Positions 38,368-45,144 are shown, numbered from the stretch's first letter. The stretch is 64,000 bases of DNA from Myxococcota bacterium (GCA_050331295.1 JBHJGZ010000003.1:53459-117458), one strand, 5' to 3'. A program made the numbers and translations. Notes: generated by a model not told the origin, from the letters alone.

Positions 38368-39732
38368 CTACTTCTGGCCGTTCTCGAGATCGATTCGATA
38401 GCGCTTGAGCCAGCGGTGGATCTGCATCCTCGCCTTTCCCATGTCCCGCGCCACTTGGCTGATGTTTCCATGATGGCGCTCCAACAGTTCCACCAGTCGC
38501 TGGCGTCGAGCTTCATCCTCTTCGGACAGCGGATGAACGCGCATCGGCCTCTCCTCCGACGGAGTGAACCGCCACTTGTCCGCGGCGAGTTTTCCGTCCG
38601 GAGCCAGCGTCAAGGCCAAGGTCACCGCCTTTTCCAGCTCCCGCACATTGTACCGCCAAAGCTGCAGCATCAGTTGTCTCGCCACGGTTCGAGGCAAAAC
38701 GATCGACGCGGGGTCTCGGCCGCTTCTTCGCACCAGCTCCCGAAAGAGCCGACCGATGTCTTCTCGACGGTCGCGGAGCGGTGGAATCTCCATGGTAAAG
38801 CCGGAGATTCGGGCCATCAGATCCTCTCGGAAACGTCCCGAGTCCACGAACTGGTTGAGGTCTCGATGGGTGGCCGTCACCAGGCGAAAGTCGACGGGAA
38901 TCGTCCGGTGACCTCCCACCGGAACCACCGTCCGCTCCTGCAAGACTCGCAAGAGCTTCACCTGCGCCGCGAGGGGCAGCTCTCCGATTTCGTCCAGGAA
39001 GAGCGTCCCGTGATTCGCCGCGCGAACCAGACCTTCCCGGTCTCGATCCGCTCCACTGAATGCACCCCGCTCTACGCCGAACAATTCCGATTCCACGAGG
39101 GCTTCTGGTAGGGCGCCGCAATTGACCGGCACGAAAGCCCCTTTCCGACCCGACTGCCGATGGACGAGGGATGCAGCCACTTCCTTCCCCACACCGCTTT
39201 CGCCGCGCACGGAAACCGGGACATCACTCGCCGCGACTTGGGCCAGCTGCATCAATTGCCCGGCCCATGGACCATGGAAGGTTCGAAGTTCACCGAGGCC
39301 CTGGGGGCCGTCGTCGTCGTGGACCCACGTGGGAGTCCGATCCCGGAACACGAAGAATGAGTGCCCCAGTTCGATGATGTCGCCGTCCCGAAGGCGTTGA
39401 GTGTCCGTCACCGGGATGCCGTTGACCAAGGACCCGTTCTTGGAACCCAAGTCCTGGAGGGCGAAGCCGCTCGCATCTTTTGCGATTTGCGCGTGATGGC
39501 GAGACATCCGGGAGTCCGGGAGGCCCACCTCCAGGGCACAGGAGTCTCGATGAAGGCGCAGCTGGCCACTCCGACCCCATCGAGACTTGAGGACCGGGTC
39601 GAGCCGTACCCGATAAGAAGCGAGGTCCATCCGGTCGGCACAGAACACGAACACCAAGTGCGGGCGAACCACGCTCCGAGGCCGGATGCCCGAATCGTCG
39701 ATCAAGGAGAGTGTCTGACTGAGGTCACGCAT
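38368..39732 (-). CDS. FHA-domain sigma54-dependent activator (AAA+, Fis HTH)
   Basis: FHA (GR..SRHHA..SKNGS), GESGVGKE, ESELFG, GAFSGA, FLDEIG, C-terminal HTH. Confidence 0.93.
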   Translation of the reverse strand: MRDLSQTLSLIDDSGIRPRSVVRPHLVFVFCADRMDLASYRVRLDPVLKSRWGRSGQLRLHRDSCALEVGLPDSRMSRHHAQIAKDASGFALQDLGSKNGSLVNGIPVTDTQRLRDGDIIELGHSFFVFRDRTPTWVHDDDGPQGLGELRTFHGPWAGQLMQLAQVAASDVPVSVRGESGVGKEVAASLVHRQSGRKGAFVPVNCGALPEALVESELFGVERGAFSGADRDREGLVRAANHGTLFLDEIGELPLAAQVKLLRVLQERTVVPVGGHRTIPVDFRLVTATHRDLNQFVDSGRFREDLMARISGFTMEIPPLRDRREDIGRLFRELVRRSGRDPASIVLPRTVARQLMLQLWRYNVRELEKAVTLALTLAPDGKLAADKWRFTPSEERPMRVHPLSEEDEARRQRLVELLERHHGNISQVARDMGKARMQIHRWLKRYRIDLENGQK

Positions 39733-39853
39733 GAAGTCGCTTCCCGGAGTCACAACCCATAGCACACCCCCAATTCATAAGCTGTCTGCCCCACCGCATC
39801 AGGGCTTTATGGCCTTCGACAAGACGGGTTGTGGTCACTACTTTGGAGAGGCT

Positions 39854-42688
39854 TTGAGTGAGGGGGACGACGGCGGAGACGACACCATCACGAGTCCCCA
39901 TCGGCCTTCGATCCAAAGGAGCCGACGACGGCCGCCAGCGGCGACCACCGACCCCGGAACGGAACTGCTCGGTCGGTATGTCCTCCTCGACGCCCTGGGG
40001 GAAGGGGGCGGGGGACAGGTGTTTCGTGCGTTTGATCGTCAATTGGAGCGTCAAGTTGCCATCAAGCGGCTGAAGGAGAAGACGCCCAGTCGATCCCACA
40101 GTTCCGCCATCCGCCTCCGCCGCGAAGCCCAAGCCAATGCCCTCCTTCAGCACCCCCACGTGGTGTCGGTGTTCGATGTCGGCGAGCAAGACGGCGACGT
40201 CTTCATCGCGATGGAGTACGTGGAAGGGACGTCTCTCAAAGACTGGCTGAAAGAGCCCAGGAGTCGGCGAGAGATTCTGCAGGTTTTCCTGCAGGCGGGT
40301 GAAGGCCTCTTCGCCGCCCACGAGAAAGGCATCATCCACCGAGACTTCAAGCCGTCCAATGTCTTGGTCGGTCGCGACAACCGAGCACGGGTCGCGGATT
40401 TTGGTCTCGCGCGGGCGGCAGGTGATACCTCCACGGACGGTCCGTCGTCCACACCTGCTCCGACGCTGGTGGACCAAAACCTCACGCGAACCGGGGCGCT
40501 CGTCGGAACACCGGCGTACATGGCACCGGAACAGTTTCTGGGCGGGCCCGTGGATCAACGGTCCGACCAGTTCGCGTTCTGCCTCGCCTTGGCGGAAGCT
40601 CTGACCGGAACCGCGGCACCGCGCGGACAGATCACGAACGAAGGTTGGGCGACATCGCCCGACGCCCTACCCAACTGGATTCGACGTGCGAAGCTTGCAA
40701 AGCCCCTGCGCAAAGCCTTGATCCGCGGCCTCGCCGACGAGCCGGACCAGCGCTTCGCCACCATGCGGCCGATTCTGGACGCCGTCCGAGCAGCCTCATC
40801 GGGACGGCGCATCGCGGGTCCCGCCGCGGCCATCGCGGCGGGGACCGCCGCATTGGTGGCGGCCGGACTCAGACTCTATCCAGGTCCGTGTGCCGCCACG
40901 GCATCCGCCTTGTCCGAAGTCTGGAGTCCGGAACGACGGGCCCAGATTCAGAGACGCCTCGAGATCGCATCTCCCGCTCCCTGGCGATCCGTCTGGTCTT
41001 CCTTGGACCGCTATGCTCAGCAGTGGCTGGAGGCCCGAACTCAGATCTGCGAAGCCACACGGGTCCGAGGCGATCAGTCGGAGAGTCTCATGGACATCCG
41101 GATGCAATGCCTCGACCGACGTCGCGAGGGCCTTCGCGTCTTCCTGGGTCTTCTCGAATCGGGCACCATCGGCAACGCCGCCCGAGCCTCGAACGCCGTT
41201 CTGCGCCTCGGGAGCCCGAAACTCTGTACCACCGTGCAGAGCATGCGGACCCTTGGACGGTCCTTGAGCCCAGCCGAGGCCGAAAGGGCCCGAGAACTGG
41301 AGGCCTTGTTCGCTCAACTCGAGGCGGCGGATGCCGCGGGCCTGGTCCCGTCTGGTTTGGCCTTGGCTCAGCGGGCGGTGGAGCTGGCCGACGCCATCCG
41401 TCGAACCGATTTGCAAACCTCCGCTCACAGATGGAGAGCCAAGCTCCGGGCGGCGGACGACCAGCGGGCCCAGGCCGTTTCGGACTGGGAGCGGGTGAGC
41501 GTCCTCGCCGACGCATCTGCAAACGATGCGGTACGCCTCGAGAGCTACGTCGAGCTGATACGCCTGGACCCAGGCGTTCCAGAGACCGCTCAAGTCTCCG
41601 ACGACCACGTCGAGCGAGCTCGAGCCGTTCTGGATCGACTGGGTGCGGGTCCCCGGTACAAGGCCCTCGTTTTCGGGGCCATGGGAGCCCTAAGTCTCCG
41701 GCGCGGTGACTTTCTCGGATGTCAGACCCACGGACAGGTGGCGATGCGCATGATCAACGAAGCGGAAGACGCGCCCTTGGACGAGCGGCTCGAGCTCTCG
41801 GAGGACCTCGCTCGCTGCCTGGAGCGCCAAGGCTCCAGGGTGCGGGCAGCGGAGGTCGTACGTTCATCCCTCGAGCTGGCGGAGAGGGAGCTTGGCCCGG
41901 AGCATCCTCGAATCGCCCGCCTTCTGGTCCAGCTTTCGAGAGCCCTCGACTTCTCTGGGAATGCGTCCGACGCGGAAAGTACGGCCCGGCGGAGCCTCCG
42001 CTTGGCGGCAAGCAGCTTTGGTGCGCAGCACAGTACCACCGCGCTCGCTCATCAGGCGGTGGCCAACGTGCTCTTCCGAAAGCGCGATTGGGAGGGAGCG
42101 CTTCAGCATTATCGCACCGCTCTGGACATCATGTCGGATGTGTACGGAGAACGAAGCCGGACCGCAGGCGGCCTTCAGTCCACCATCGCCCTGACCCTGG
42201 ACGAGATGGGCCATCATTCACGAGCTCAAAGCCTCCATGAAGCCGCGATCGAGACCCTGACCAAGACGGTGGGCCCCGCTCATCCCGAAACCGCGGCGGC
42301 GCGGACACGGTATGGATGGTCCCTCTCCAGGCAGGGGCAATGTCAAGCTGCTCTGCAGCACCATCGCAAGGCCCTCGCAGACCTCAGAAAGTCCGATCCT
42401 GAGCACGCTCGGATGTTGGACGTCATCCGAGGGATCGTGGAGTGCCTCATCAAACTCGGTCGTCCGCAGGACGGGGTCGCGTACATCGAAGAAGGGCTGC
42501 AGATCAGCGAACACCGAGACGAAGCACCGTTTTATACCGCGCAGCTCGAGTATCAAGCCGCCCAGGTGTTTTGGTCCCTCGGGCACCGAGAACGATCCAT
42601 GACCATGGCGCGTCGCGCCCATCGGCGTCTCTCGGGGTCGGATGAGCTTCGAGGAGAAATCGAGGCTTGGTCTTCCGAACGATTTTGA
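39854..42688 (+). CDS. Ser/Thr protein kinase with TM and TPR repeats
   Basis: GEGGGG, VAIK, HRDFKPSN, DFG, GTPAYMAPEQ; LGPEHP-type TPRs; TTG start after GGAGAGG. Confidence 0.92.
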   Translation: MSEGDDGGDDTITSPHRPSIQRSRRRPPAATTDPGTELLGRYVLLDALGEGGGGQVFRAFDRQLERQVAIKRLKEKTPSRSHSSAIRLRREAQANALLQHPHVVSVFDVGEQDGDVFIAMEYVEGTSLKDWLKEPRSRREILQVFLQAGEGLFAAHEKGIIHRDFKPSNVLVGRDNRARVADFGLARAAGDTSTDGPSSTPAPTLVDQNLTRTGALVGTPAYMAPEQFLGGPVDQRSDQFAFCLALAEALTGTAAPRGQITNEGWATSPDALPNWIRRAKLAKPLRKALIRGLADEPDQRFATMRPILDAVRAASSGRRIAGPAAAIAAGTAALVAAGLRLYPGPCAATASALSEVWSPERRAQIQRRLEIASPAPWRSVWSSLDRYAQQWLEARTQICEATRVRGDQSESLMDIRMQCLDRRREGLRVFLGLLESGTIGNAARASNAVLRLGSPKLCTTVQSMRTLGRSLSPAEAERARELEALFAQLEAADAAGLVPSGLALAQRAVELADAIRRTDLQTSAHRWRAKLRAADDQRAQAVSDWERVSVLADASANDAVRLESYVELIRLDPGVPETAQVSDDHVERARAVLDRLGAGPRYKALVFGAMGALSLRRGDFLGCQTHGQVAMRMINEAEDAPLDERLELSEDLARCLERQGSRVRAAEVVRSSLELAERELGPEHPRIARLLVQLSRALDFSGNASDAESTARRSLRLAASSFGAQHSTTALAHQAVANVLFRKRDWEGALQHYRTALDIMSDVYGERSRTAGGLQSTIALTLDEMGHHSRAQSLHEAAIETLTKTVGPAHPETAAARTRYGWSLSRQGQCQAALQHHRKALADLRKSDPEHARMLDVIRGIVECLIKLGRPQDGVAYIEEGLQISEHRDEAPFYTAQLEYQAAQVFWSLGHRERSMTMARRAHRRLSGSDELRGEIEAWSSERF

Positions 42689-42721
42689 GGGCTCGAAAGG
42701 GCCCTGTGCATGCATCGGGGG

Positions 42722-42750
42722 TTGACTTTGAGAATTATTCTCAATAATAA
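42722..42750 (+). promoter_or_regulatory. Sigma70-type promoter whose spacer is a Fur-family box
   Basis: TTGACT, then TTGAGAAT-T-ATTCTCAA (42728-42744, perfect 8-1-8 inverted repeat), then an AT-rich -10 region. Confidence 0.75.
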
Positions 42751-42754
42751 CGGG

Positions 42755-42846
42755 GCTGTGACCAGGCGGCGGGGCTGACTCTTTCCCCGTGACCTCTTCT
42801 CTCTTCGCTGATTGCACCTCTGCTCCGCCGCCGGTCGCAATTTCTC
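42755..42846 (+). ncRNA. Candidate Fur-regulated small RNA (or structured trxB leader)
   Basis: 18-bp stem (42757-42775 with 42822-42839; one bulge; two G-U pairs valid only on the + strand); 46-nt C/U-rich loop; short U tract after the stem. Confidence 0.5.
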
Positions 42847-42883
42847 GGGTCGCCGGATGCACCGGCGAATCGCCGTCCGTCGA

Positions 42884-42912
42884 TTGCATCGCCGGCGCAG
42901 GACGACTAGCCC
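42884..42912 (+). promoter_or_regulatory. Possible separate trxB promoter
   Basis: TTGCAT-N17-TAGCCC ending 8 nt before the ATG; no SD, consistent with a near-leaderless mRNA. Confidence 0.35.
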
Positions 42913-42920
42913 CGACCTCC

Positions 42921-43895
42921 ATGGAAAAGACCAAGGTGGTCATCATCGGCTCAGGTCCAGCAGGGTATACCGCGGCCCTCTACACCGCGCGCGCCGACCT
43001 GAGCCCGGTTCTGATCGAAGGCAGTTTCATTCCGGGGAACGCCTCCGTGCTTCCGGGTGGTCAGCTCATGATCACCACGGACGTCGAGAACTATCCCGGG
43101 TTTCCCGAAGGGATTCTGGGGCCCGACATGATGGAAAAGTTTCGGCATCAGGCCACCCGCTTCGGAACCGAGATCGTGCACGGGTTCGTCACGAACGTAG
43201 ATCTTTCGAAACGACCCTTCGCGGTGTCGGTGGAGAACGAGCCAAAGTACGAGGCCGAATCGCTGATCATCGCCACCGGCGCGGTGGCCAAATTGCTCGA
43301 AATCCCCGGGGAGCGAGAACTGATGGGTCACGGCGTGTCGGCGTGTGCAACCTGTGACGGGGCGTTCTTCAAAGACCGTCATGTCGTCGTCGTGGGTGGT
43401 GGCGACACCGCCATGGAGGAATCCTTGTTCCTCACCCGCTTCGCTTCCAAGGTCACCGTCATCCATCGCCGGGACGCCCTCCGCGCATCGAAGGTGATGG
43501 CAGACCGAGCTTTCAAGCATCCGAAGATCGAGTTCATCTGGAACACCGTCGTCACCGAGGTGGTCGGCCAGAAGCCCGCCGGTCCCGGTGCCCCGGGCGG
43601 CATCGAGGCCGTGAAGCTTCACAACGTCGAGACCGACGAGAAGAACGAACTGCCTTGCGATGGGTTTTTCGTCGCGATCGGCCACAAACCGAACACCGAT
43701 CTCTTCGAAGGCCAGCTGGACATGGATTCGGATGGCTACCTCAAGGTTCTGCCCGGGAGTGCAAAGACGAAGATCGAGGGCGTGTTCGCGTGCGGAGACG
43801 TCCAGGACAAGGTGTATCGGCAGGCGGTGACGGCGGCGGGAACCGGCTGCATGGCGGCCATCGATTGCGAGCGATTCCTCGATAGCTTGGAGTGA
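42921..43895 (+). CDS. trxB: Thioredoxin-disulfide reductase
   Basis: IIGSGPAGYTAA, VENYPGF, CATCDG, GGGDTA, FACGDV. Confidence 0.97.
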   Translation: MEKTKVVIIGSGPAGYTAALYTARADLSPVLIEGSFIPGNASVLPGGQLMITTDVENYPGFPEGILGPDMMEKFRHQATRFGTEIVHGFVTNVDLSKRPFAVSVENEPKYEAESLIIATGAVAKLLEIPGERELMGHGVSACATCDGAFFKDRHVVVVGGGDTAMEESLFLTRFASKVTVIHRRDALRASKVMADRAFKHPKIEFIWNTVVTEVVGQKPAGPGAPGGIEAVKLHNVETDEKNELPCDGFFVAIGHKPNTDLFEGQLDMDSDGYLKVLPGSAKTKIEGVFACGDVQDKVYRQAVTAAGTGCMAAIDCERFLDSLE

Positions 43896-43980
43896 CCGGC
43901 TCCAAGTGAAAGTCGCCTTCCGGAAACGGTCGCGCCGCTAGCGCTTGACGGGTGCCGGGACCGTCGGATGCAAACACAGT

Positions 43981-45144
43981 GTGGACGACCAGCTTTTCGA
44001 GACTCGCGCCATTCACGCCGGATGTGACCCCGAAACCGTCACGGGGTCGGTCAGTGTTCCCATCTTTCAAACCTCGACCTTCGCGCAGCAGGCGCCCGGA
44101 GAACACACCGGCTTCGAATATGCGCGTACTCGAAACCCCACGCGCGATGCGTTGGAGCGAAATCTAGCCTCTCTCGAGGGAGCGCGACACGGACTGTGCT
44201 TTTCATCGGGATGCGCGGCAACTGATGCGATTCTCCATTGTTTGAAGCCCGGTGATCATGTCGTCAGTGTCGATGACCTCTACGGCGGCACGTACCGGCT
44301 GTTCATGAGCCTGTATCGTCCCAAGGGTATCGACTTCACGTTCATTTCAGCCGACCAGCCCGAAGACTTGGACAACGCCATTTCGGACCGAACCAAGCTG
44401 ATCTGGGTCGAAACGCCCAGCAACCCTCTCCTGGTGGTGCTTCCCATCGCGACGCTCTGTGCGGTGGCAAAGCGGCGGGGCGTGCCGGTGGTCGTGGACA
44501 ACACGTTCGCCACCCCGTATCTGCAGCAGCCGCTGGCCCATGGCGCGACCCTCGTCCTTCACTCCGTGACCAAGTACCTCGGAGGACATTCCGATCTCAT
44601 CGGCGGCGCCGTCCTGACCAGCGACGACGAGTGGAGAGAACGACTCGCTTTCATCCAGAATGCGGCTGGCGCAGTCCCCGGACCCTTCGACTGTTTCCTG
44701 GCTCTTCGGGGCACGAAGACTCTACATGTGCGGATGGACCGGCATTGCGACAACGCAGAGGCCATCGCCGAATGGCTCGAGCACCAGCGGGGGGTCAAGT
44801 CGGTGATCTATCCAGGTCTTCGTTCTCACCGACAACACGACATCGCCCGCGAACAGATGCGCCGCTTCGGCGGGATGGTGAGCTTCGTCCTGGATGGAGA
44901 TCTCGCCAGCAGCCGGCGCTTTCTCTCGGGGATGGAAGTGTTCACGCTGGCTGAATCGCTCGGCGGCGTGGAGAGTCTGATCGAACATCCGGCGATCATG
45001 ACGCACGCATCGATACCGGCCGAGGAGCGGCACGCTCGCGGTATCGACGATGGCTTCATTCGACTGTCCGTCGGCATCGAGGCCCTGGAAGACTTGCGGA
45101 AGGACCTGGAAAGGGCCTTCGCACGCCTTGCATCCATCAATTGA
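43981..45144 (+). CDS. Cystathionine gamma-synthase/gamma-lyase (MetB/MccB-like)
   Basis: PIFQTSTF, YARTRNPT, ETPSNP, DNTF, SVTKYLGGHSD, AESLGGVESL. Confidence 0.93.
   Translation: MDDQLFETRAIHAGCDPETVTGSVSVPIFQTSTFAQQAPGEHTGFEYARTRNPTRDALERNLASLEGARHGLCFSSGCAATDAILHCLKPGDHVVSVDDLYGGTYRLFMSLYRPKGIDFTFISADQPEDLDNAISDRTKLIWVETPSNPLLVVLPIATLCAVAKRRGVPVVVDNTFATPYLQQPLAHGATLVLHSVTKYLGGHSDLIGGAVLTSDDEWRERLAFIQNAAGAVPGPFDCFLALRGTKTLHVRMDRHCDNAEAIAEWLEHQRGVKSVIYPGLRSHRQHDIAREQMRRFGGMVSFVLDGDLASSRRFLSGMEVFTLAESLGGVESLIEHPAIMTHASIPAEERHARGIDDGFIRLSVGIEALEDLRKDLERAFARLASIN

Follow-up and report, generated by a model that had tools for sequence, protein, structure and literature searches.

A candidate Fur-repressed small RNA with a single clamped, C/U-rich loop upstream of trxB in an uncultured myxobacterium

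We analyzed a 64,000-nt stretch of DNA (the window; GCA_050331295.1, JBHJGZ010000003.1:53459–117458) from the genome of an uncultured myxobacterium (G000; 4.97 Mb, 98.25% complete), focusing on an element located upstream of the thioredoxin reductase gene trxB that consists of a promoter overlapped by a palindrome, a long G+C stem, and a large C/U-rich loop. Positions are given in window numbering. The element is probably the gene of a Fur-repressed small RNA (sRNA) of approximately 85–95 nt that covers ribosome-binding sites, probably without the help of Hfq. We infer from sequence the transcription of this gene, the start and end of its RNA, the binding of Fur, the response to iron, and the repression of translation. 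The evidence consists of a motif that marks an iron regulon, an architecture that recurs at unlinked sites in related genomes, and a complementarity between the loop and the ribosome-binding site of a HiPIP gene that is retained in most of the relatives carrying both. We further propose, with more reserve and at slightly less than an even chance, that the RNA represents an undescribed family of Hfq-independent, Fur-repressed "clamped-loop" sRNAs in an uncultured class of Myxococcota, that the giant anti-Shine-Dalgarno loop of this RNA and the ribosome-binding site of a respiratory HiPIP evolve in concert, so that HiPIP is turned off when iron is scarce, and that iron sparing through RNA is widely distributed in the phylum, with several origins.

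The first-pass annotation, made from the sequence alone, had described TTGACT followed by a perfect palindrome, a stem with strand-specific G-U pairs around a 46-nt loop of three UGA-led C/U units, a U tract, and a second hairpin, and all of these features were read directly in the window (Table 1). The palindrome occupies the entire promoter spacer because the −10-like hexamer TAATAA stands exactly 17 nt after the −35 hexamer, and TTGAC(T/A/G) is found at the equivalent position ahead of the box in all of the relatives whose module loci were read. The closing stem consists of 17 pairs, is composed of G+C with one bulged A and two G·U pairs, and the latter become A-C mismatches if the other strand is read. 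The loop contains 18 C, 18 U, 6 G, and 4 A (78% pyrimidine). The predicted 97-nt RNA folded with −42.0 kcal/mol (z = −3.38), and none of 200 shuffled sequences was equally stable; the z value of the antisense strand was −0.96.

The arrangement of these features suggests the following mode of action. In iron-replete cells, Fur dimers on the palindrome between TTGACT and TAATAA would occlude RNA polymerase. When iron is short, Fur would depart and transcription would begin at most a few nucleotides from the base of the stem; the transcript would probably terminate at or shortly past the stem, possibly with some read-through toward trxB. The G+C clamp would keep the C/U-rich loop (26–58 nt among the copies described below) single-stranded and open, and stretches of the loop that resemble an anti-Shine-Dalgarno sequence could then pair with purine-rich ribosome-binding sites and block the initiation of translation. 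The mRNA of HiPIP, a Tat-exported 4Fe-4S protein, is the best candidate target, which would make the RNA an iron-sparing regulator. Hfq is probably uninvolved because no Hfq gene (PF17209) was found in the 98.25% complete genome, in a search that gave hits in control genomes.

The palindrome had been interpreted as a Fur box, and the distribution of the motif in G000 bears this out. The window contains a single exact copy of the box. Allowing up to 2 mismatches, the specific box gave 10 sites in the 4.97-Mb genome versus 0 for the reversed control, and the general TGANAATNATTNTCA box gave 32 sites (3 exact and 2 with one mismatch) versus 2 for the control. The best sites adjoin a ferritin-like gene (Pfam E = 3e-37), a TonB-receptor Plug gene (4.6e-15), and a DUF4856 gene (3e-8), and in the relatives the box with its promoter precedes open reading frames (ORFs) that resemble flavodoxin, Bfd, and TonB-dependent receptors (names assigned by eye). 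G000 contains four Fur-family genes (C12:79725, C7:344697, C9:391665, and C2:121005). These results indicate that the palindrome is a predicted Fur operator that overlaps the sRNA promoter and belongs to a real regulon motif. PerR, Fur, and Zur boxes have a common 7-1-7 layout, TrxB is an oxidative-stress enzyme, and one of the sites lies beside a ferritin/Dps-like gene, so that the box might instead be an operator for PerR or another of the four Fur-family proteins that places trxB under oxidative-stress control, with the hairpin being incidental. We consider this very unlikely: the box is read as Fur and not PerR because the other sites of the motif mark an iron-uptake regulon, and no such box was seen upstream of trxB in five relatives, within 420 nt in G003 and G004 (at up to 3 mismatches) and within 120 nt in G001, G002, and G010.

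The Fur-box sRNA architecture was sought in related genomes. The class of G000 comprises 20 genomes, and the sets at the family and order levels are identical to it. In a DNA search of 61 genomes with positions 42690–42925, the sole match was to the promoter and box of G002 (E = 1.3e-5, query 30–64), and the RNA body was never matched; structure is thus kept and sequence is not. The G002 locus has TTGACT, the box, 18 nt, a perfect 15-bp stem with a 35-nt C+U-rich loop, and then GCCUUUUCAUUU. A pattern search gave further copies of the module in G001 and G004 (same genus) and in G010 (another genus); a match in G008 was rejected because it is the start of an ORF. G003, which the initial pattern had overlooked because its box has one mismatch, was found to hold two copies when all of its boxes were examined. 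Copy a has a 13-bp stem with two G·U pairs and a 37-nt loop containing CUUUCUCCCUC, and in the second copy (L318, from G003:C22:51336 onward) a very C-rich tail comes after the hairpin. The total is seven copies in 6 of the 20 genomes, with all five genomes of the genus carrying one. In L318, the C-rich stretch CUUUCCCCCUCCCCCCCAAUCCCCCUUU, which is similar to the G002 loop, lies 3′ of the hairpin instead of in the loop; the placement of the presumed seed with respect to the clamp thus varies.

Across the copies, the distance from box to stem is 10–18 nt, the −35 hexamer is always oriented toward the hairpin, and the loop (26–58 nt) is pyrimidine-rich on the promoter strand in every case, even though the 5′ arms are only 8–67% identical when anchored at either end. 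Pooled over the first five copies (G000, G001, G002, G004, and G010), the loops contain 152 pyrimidines in 208 nt and 15 A (binomial p ~1e-11), which agrees with the C/U-rich, anti-ribosome-binding-site logic proposed earlier. The z values of the sense folds for these five copies were −3.4, −7.3, −6.1, −4.5, and −1.6 versus −1.0, −5.5, −3.5, −0.9, and 0.0 for the antisense strands, the sense value being lower in 5 of 5. Neither the UGA-led units nor the second hairpin had an equivalent at the relatives' loci examined; both exist in G000, to which they are specific, and they were rejected as conserved features. These results indicate that what is conserved, at non-syntenic sites, is the predicted architecture of Fur-box promoter, long stem, and C/U-rich loop.

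We searched G000 with the complement of the loop to identify possible targets. Two ribosome-binding sites were among the best BLAST hits, those of rpsO (14/14 bp) and HiPIP (19/22 bp, with 10 + 9 bp around a 3 × 3 loop). The HiPIP site (G000:C1:263714–263735) corresponds to −27 to −6 of the ATG of a 148-aa Tat-signal lipoprotein that matches HiPIP (PF01355) above the cut-off (E = 3.9e-6), a 4Fe-4S electron carrier. As a lone BLAST hit, the HiPIP site was not significant (E = 2.8), and the pairing was therefore examined in the relatives. HiPIP orthologues were found in G001, G002, G004, and G010. The pairing is kept in 4 of the 5 cognate pairs (Table 1), where it reaches past the Shine-Dalgarno core into gene-specific flanks, and 4 of the 5 HiPIP targets pair best with their own loop when all five loops are compared. 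Relative to G001, an extra C in the G010 RNA matches an extra G in the G010 target. At the start regions of G000 that bear a Shine-Dalgarno sequence, the background frequency of such helices was 0.0078 for the G001 loop (≥11 bp), 0.0051 for the G004 loop (≥12 bp), and 0.0161 for the G010 loop (≥11 bp). HiPIP had been chosen from approximately 56 candidate ORFs ahead of the test in the relatives; even allowing for this choice, three such helices are unlikely to have arisen by chance, with the caution that the G001 and G010 helices may not be independent of each other. Neither of two control genes, rpsO (cognate helices of 14, 7, 8, 6, and 10 bp) and the gene of a Rieske protein (12, 8, and 7 bp), kept its pairing in the relatives, and both were rejected as targets. 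A ThiC orthologue was found only in G002, where it is split over two contig ends. The HiPIP mRNA is the sole predicted target with comparative support, and its complementarity to the loop appears to be conserved.

Table 1. Coordinates of the features of the window locus (window numbering) and of the predicted loop–HiPIP helices (positions relative to the HiPIP start codon).
Feature	Position	Strand	Basis or remark
−35 hexamer TTGACT	42722–42727	+	Read from sequence
Perfect palindrome, 17 nt, TTGAGAAT-T-ATTCTCAA, putative Fur box	42728–42744	.	Sequence
Core 7-1-7 box TGAGAATTATTCTCA inside the palindrome	42729–42743		Sequence
−10-like hexamer TAATAA	42745–42750	+	Spacing to −35 (17 nt) read from sequence
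Transcription start, putative	~42756–42759	+	Deduced from sequence
Closing stem, 5′ arm, 18 nt, A42764 bulged	42758–42775	+	Minimum-free-energy and centroid structures
C/U-rich loop, 46 nt, presumed seed region	42776–42821	+	Sequence, composition count
Loop segment complementary to the HiPIP ribosome-binding site, CCUCUUCUCU, 3-nt gap, CGCUGAUUG	42793–42814	+	
Closing stem, 3′ arm	42822–42838	+	Minimum-free-energy and centroid structures
Weak U-rich tail AAUUUCUC, possible 3′ end	42839–42846	+	Sequence; unflagged by terminator scan
Second small hairpin, 7 bp	42850–42868	+	Sequence and fold; membership in the element doubtful
trxB promoter-like pair TTGCAT (42884–42889), 17 nt, TAGCCC (42907–42912)	42884–42912	+	Ends 8 nt before ATG 42921
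trxB, thioredoxin reductase, 324 aa	42921–43895	+	Pyr_redox_2, E = 3e-56
G000 loop–HiPIP helix, 10 bp (+9)	−15 to −6 and −27 to −19		
G001 loop–HiPIP helix, 11 bp (GUCGUUUCCUC with GAGGAGACGAC)	−12 to −2		
G002 loop–HiPIP helix, 7 bp	−15 to −9		Weak
G004 loop–HiPIP helix, 13 bp including 2 G·U	−9 to +3		Through AUG
G010 loop–HiPIP helix, 11 bp (GUCCGUCUCCU with AGGAGACGGAC)	−14 to −4		

Apart from the non-significant BLAST value and the prior selection of the ORF, several results count against the HiPIP assignment. The G002 helix is short and weak. G003 carries the RNA, and no HiPIP was detected in this genome by protein or family-model search. HiPIP is present in 10 of the 20 class genomes, and strict co-occurrence of RNA and HiPIP fails because G003 has the RNA without a detectable HiPIP. 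In a duplex scan of 28-nt windows around 16,752 candidate starts in G000, the real loop formed 1312 duplexes of −20 kcal/mol or lower versus 1425–2351 for the 6 controls (five shuffles and the reversed loop), so that there was no genome-wide enrichment, and the energy ranking was dropped as evidence because the real loop had fewer strong duplexes than the controls; full-length duplexes gave inflated energies. The 40 best helices at G000 ribosome-binding sites, classified by Pfam, were a mixture without a clear excess of iron proteins, in which ribosomal proteins L7/L12 and L6, HU, and FtsH appeared alongside ThiC, Rieske, and cytochrome P460 proteins; the gene calls (3845 ORFs) were obtained with a crude filter based on G+C by codon position.

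The relationship of the RNA to trxB was investigated by comparing the loci of both in the six genomes that carry the module. The TrxB orthologues of G001–G004 and G010 are 76–80% identical to that of G000 and are encoded at other loci; the closest named relative is a metagenome-assembled genome labelled Myxococcota (73% identity). The first-pass annotation had suggested that trxB has a promoter of its own, and the same layout was present in 6 of 6 genomes: a pair of TTGnnT and TA(G/C)nnn, separated by 17–18 nt, ends 7–9 nt before the ATG or GTG start codon of trxB. No Shine-Dalgarno sequence was found at trxB in any of the six genomes (loci including L098–L102), and the conserved promoter appears to give a leaderless or near-leaderless mRNA. 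The RNA lies upstream of trxB only in G000 (1 of 6 genomes). It is flanked by an upstream kinase gene and trxB in G000, by genes for a DUF1552 protein and a Fer2 ORF in G002, by mfd in G001, by a kynureninase gene in G010, and by the divergent Fur-box promoter of a small conserved protein in G004. In G001, G004, and G010 the next downstream ORF is convergent and starts 20–200 nt past the stem; these convergent ORFs had no Pfam match and were judged real on their length and, for G010 and G001, their third-position G+C (0.80 and 0.87, respectively). Downstream of G003 copy a, the approximately 480 nt that remain before the contig end contain no co-directional ORF.

Close co-directional genes are found in two genomes, where trxB lies 83 nt past the stem (G000) and the Fer2 ORF approximately 60 nt past it (G002), and the G000 tail is a poor terminator, which makes read-through plausible. 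The element might therefore belong to the downstream gene (trxB, or the 2Fe-2S ferredoxin-like ORF in G002) as a leader or attenuator under Fur control, with a hairpin that modulates read-through; this would put trxB under an iron response and involve no trans-acting RNA. This explanation is unlikely given that trxB is linked to the element in one genome of six and has its own promoter in all six, that the downstream ORF is convergent in three genomes and no co-directional one follows G003 copy a, and that a leader leaves unexplained both the retention of the C/U-rich loop and its tracking of the HiPIP ribosome-binding site. The occurrence of the module at other loci in 5 genomes, with a convergent ORF facing it in 3 of these, supports the suggestion that the RNA is encoded by an independent gene and is not the leader of one mRNA; its adjacency to trxB would accordingly be accidental, which would correct the annotation on this point.

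A further explanation is that the hairpin has no dedicated function, being a G+C-rich terminator or repeat-like palindrome that lies by chance beside the Fur box of another promoter. In 3 genomes a convergent ORF ends 20–200 nt away from the hairpin, which could terminate it, the palindromic box can be used in both directions and has divergent genes beside it in G010 and G004, and the folds of G010 (z = −1.6) and of both G003 copies (−0.4 and −0.8) are not distinct from shuffled sequences. We nevertheless regard chance proximity as quite unlikely. The invariable aim of the −35 hexamer at the hairpin and the narrow range of box-to-stem distances would not be expected of it, the loops far exceed those of terminators and are pyrimidine-rich on the promoter strand in every copy, and the sense strand folds better than the antisense strand in all five cases tested. 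In addition, of the 32 box sites in G000, the window site alone has the full architecture, one other being ambiguous. The window box serves no divergent gene because the gene upstream of it, which ends at 42688, runs in the same direction. The ambiguous site (G000:C10:6840–7001, minus strand) has a weak box with 2 mismatches and a 10-bp helix that closes a loop of 39 nt with 77% pyrimidine (UCUCUUUUCCUCUCUU); it may be a second, degenerate copy or merely the upstream region of a divergent gene.

We also considered a Fur-controlled small protein or leader peptide. ORFs of 27–34 codons are present in this region in G002 and G004, whereas G000, G001, and G010 have no ORF of at least 9 codons that closes within the segment, and the ORFs that do exist have no common frame, position, or ribosome-binding site. 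A coding function is thus extremely unlikely, and the absence of a conserved small ORF, like the negative searches for Rfam families and for Hfq, is compatible with an sRNA.

The following observations weigh against the interpretation of the element as an sRNA gene. The sequencing runs found to contain positions 41800–43800 were 6 DNA runs from 2 studies, with no RNA run among them. A consensus scanner flagged neither a promoter nor a terminator at the window locus; its rules specify T at position 6 of the −10 hexamer and a terminator loop of 3–8 nt followed by at least 5 T, and it missed TAATAA because position 6 is not T. Both TAATAA and the tail AAUUUCUC are weak. In regards to Rho-independent termination, the stem is present, the loop is 26–58 nt instead of 3–8 nt and hence atypical, and the U runs are short or absent: among the first 5 copies, G000, G002, and G004 have 3–4 U immediately after the stem, and the other 2 have no U run there. 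Both G003 copies, folded in 120–130-nt windows, were no more stable than their shuffles (z = −0.4 and −0.8). Pattern-based searches did not find the module in the other 14 genomes of the class. None of the 11 boxes (at up to 1 mismatch) of G018 is part of such a module, and the HiPIP ribosome-binding sites of G018 and G010 are almost identical; a DNA search of G018, G016, G005, G019, and G014 with the G010 module returned only Fur boxes, the new ones lacking such a hairpin. In favor of the sRNA is the covariation in relatives that had been proposed as a check: in a five-hairpin alignment, 14 of 17 pairs show changes at both positions (a result attained by 0 of 500 shuffles), and 95.5% of the cells were paired versus 64% for shuffles and 43–53% when the partner was slid, but these figures are indicative only because the alignment was fitted to the model of the window hairpin and mixes strands (5 sense and 4 antisense rows). 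MAFFT did not bring the hairpin arms into register, and a single-sequence covariance model of the window hairpin was too weak, giving E = 0.04–0.4 for the relatives in 13.7 kb with an alignment that mixed both strands.

Iron-sparing Fur-repressed sRNAs are known in Proteobacteria, Firmicutes, Actinobacteria, and cyanobacteria. Each of them must be found afresh because they are mutually unrelated in sequence. A search of Rfam (4227 models, those of RyhB, PrrF, FsrA, and IsrR included) with positions 42000–43500 gave 5 matches at E ≤10, all far below the gathering threshold, and no match at E ≤0.1 was obtained for any of seven related loci. The best match was RF03536, a model of a flavivirus exonuclease-resistant RNA (xrRNA), on the minus strand at 42735–42841 (24.9 bits versus a gathering threshold of 46.5 bits, E = 0.0088), which we took as noise from the long hairpin. 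The literature search, which covered the full texts of articles, turned up no Fur-regulated sRNA from Myxococcota, so that the first-pass remark that none is known to have been described there holds for Rfam and for the literature searched. In the sections of PMC9973013 that the search covered, RyhB is mentioned only for E. coli. Pxr, a trans-acting sRNA of Myxococcus xanthus that gates fruiting-body development (PMC10217877 and PMC5568312, in the sections covered), is the only characterized sRNA of the phylum in these sources. The window RNA resembles Pxr as a proposed sRNA from the same phylum, and differs in that Pxr is not described as iron- or Fur-controlled in those sections and gave no Rfam match at the window locus.

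The closest parallels in regulatory logic are IsrR of Staphylococcus aureus and FsrA of Bacillus subtilis. According to the sections of PMC9410917 consulted, both are Fur-repressed through a Fur box over the promoter and have C-rich seeds, and their single-stranded C-rich regions, some of which lie in hairpin loops, pair with the Shine-Dalgarno regions of iron-enzyme mRNAs; IsrR acts without Hfq, whereas FsrA requires the FbpABC chaperones. The window RNA likewise has a Fur-box promoter and a C/U-rich loop, its best-supported candidate target is the mRNA of an Fe-S protein, and no Hfq gene was found in its genome, in line with the Hfq independence of IsrR. Unlike IsrR, for which the same source gives three stem-loops, a canonical terminator, and three C-rich regions, it would have one long G+C clamp, a single giant loop, and a weak or absent U tract, and there is no sequence or Rfam relationship to either RNA. 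RyhB of enterobacteria and PrrF1/PrrF2 of Pseudomonas are likewise Fur-repressed and spare iron by repressing the mRNAs of non-essential iron proteins (PMC7948967 and PMC9410917, in part), and they are described as Hfq-dependent and not as C-rich loop RNAs (PMC9410917, in part). The two copies in G003 recall the tandem PrrF paralogues of these sources; in contrast to RyhB and PrrF, the window RNA occurs in a genome with no detectable Hfq gene, and it gave no Rfam hit to either family. The window RNA would thus be a non-homologous addition to the known class of Fur-repressed sRNAs, and its design, in which one clamp holds one large loop, would be unusual. If this is true, it would be the first iron riboregulator of the phylum, with an unusually simple design of one clamp, one large seed loop, and no Hfq, and it would point to HiPIP as a dispensable iron sink.

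The combination of a Fur box, a long stem, and a pyrimidine-rich loop also provides a search recipe, which already yields candidates in lineages with 9–13-Mb genomes that are likely to be of the cultured type of myxobacteria. One locus (L088, G121:C44), from another family of Myxococcota, contains two near-identical tandem Fur-box units 366 bp apart (locus positions 1501 and 1867), each with TTGACTA and the box and the motif CGUUCCUCCUAG, and the first copy has a canonical terminator followed by 8 T. The pair looks like PrrF1/PrrF2-style tandem sRNAs that are not homologous to the window RNA, and it had no Rfam match. In four species of one genus with 10-Mb genomes (G325, G183, G373, and G240; L079–L082), a conserved unit of approximately 175 nt follows the Fur box, with a stretch of UAUUUCUUCCCC and, at its end, a strong hairpin (GGCCCGGAGCCGC...GCGGUCCGGGCC); the two loci tested had no Rfam match, and the unit is a candidate Fur-controlled RNA of cultured-type myxobacteria. 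The occurrence of these non-homologous Fur-box RNAs in other Myxococcota suggests that RNA-based iron sparing may be widespread and have several origins. In a metagenome scan of at least 118 loci, 8 passed a crude filter and none of these was a G+C-rich relative. One locus on a 356-kb metagenome contig of an A+T-rich organism (L208) has a Fur box, an 11-bp stem, and a 40-nt loop that is 72% pyrimidine, followed by UCUUUUUUCUUU, which is an analogous layout in an unrelated background.

The gene upstream of the element in the window (39731–42688) encodes a 985-aa Ser/Thr protein kinase with TPR repeats and ends 34 nt before the −35 hexamer, and the gene downstream of trxB (43945–45144) encodes a pyridoxal-phosphate enzyme of Cys/Met metabolism. 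Furthermore, a small conserved protein of 94–104 aa without a Pfam family begins right after a Fur box in G000 (G000:C14:26945; L010, 1494–1778) and at L077 (1107–1421, minus strand). It carries the motif CPRTL...EV(T/S)(D/E)CG(V/I)RE...F(E/D)E..FEEF...LQQA, and in G004 its promoter stands back to back with the predicted sRNA promoter.

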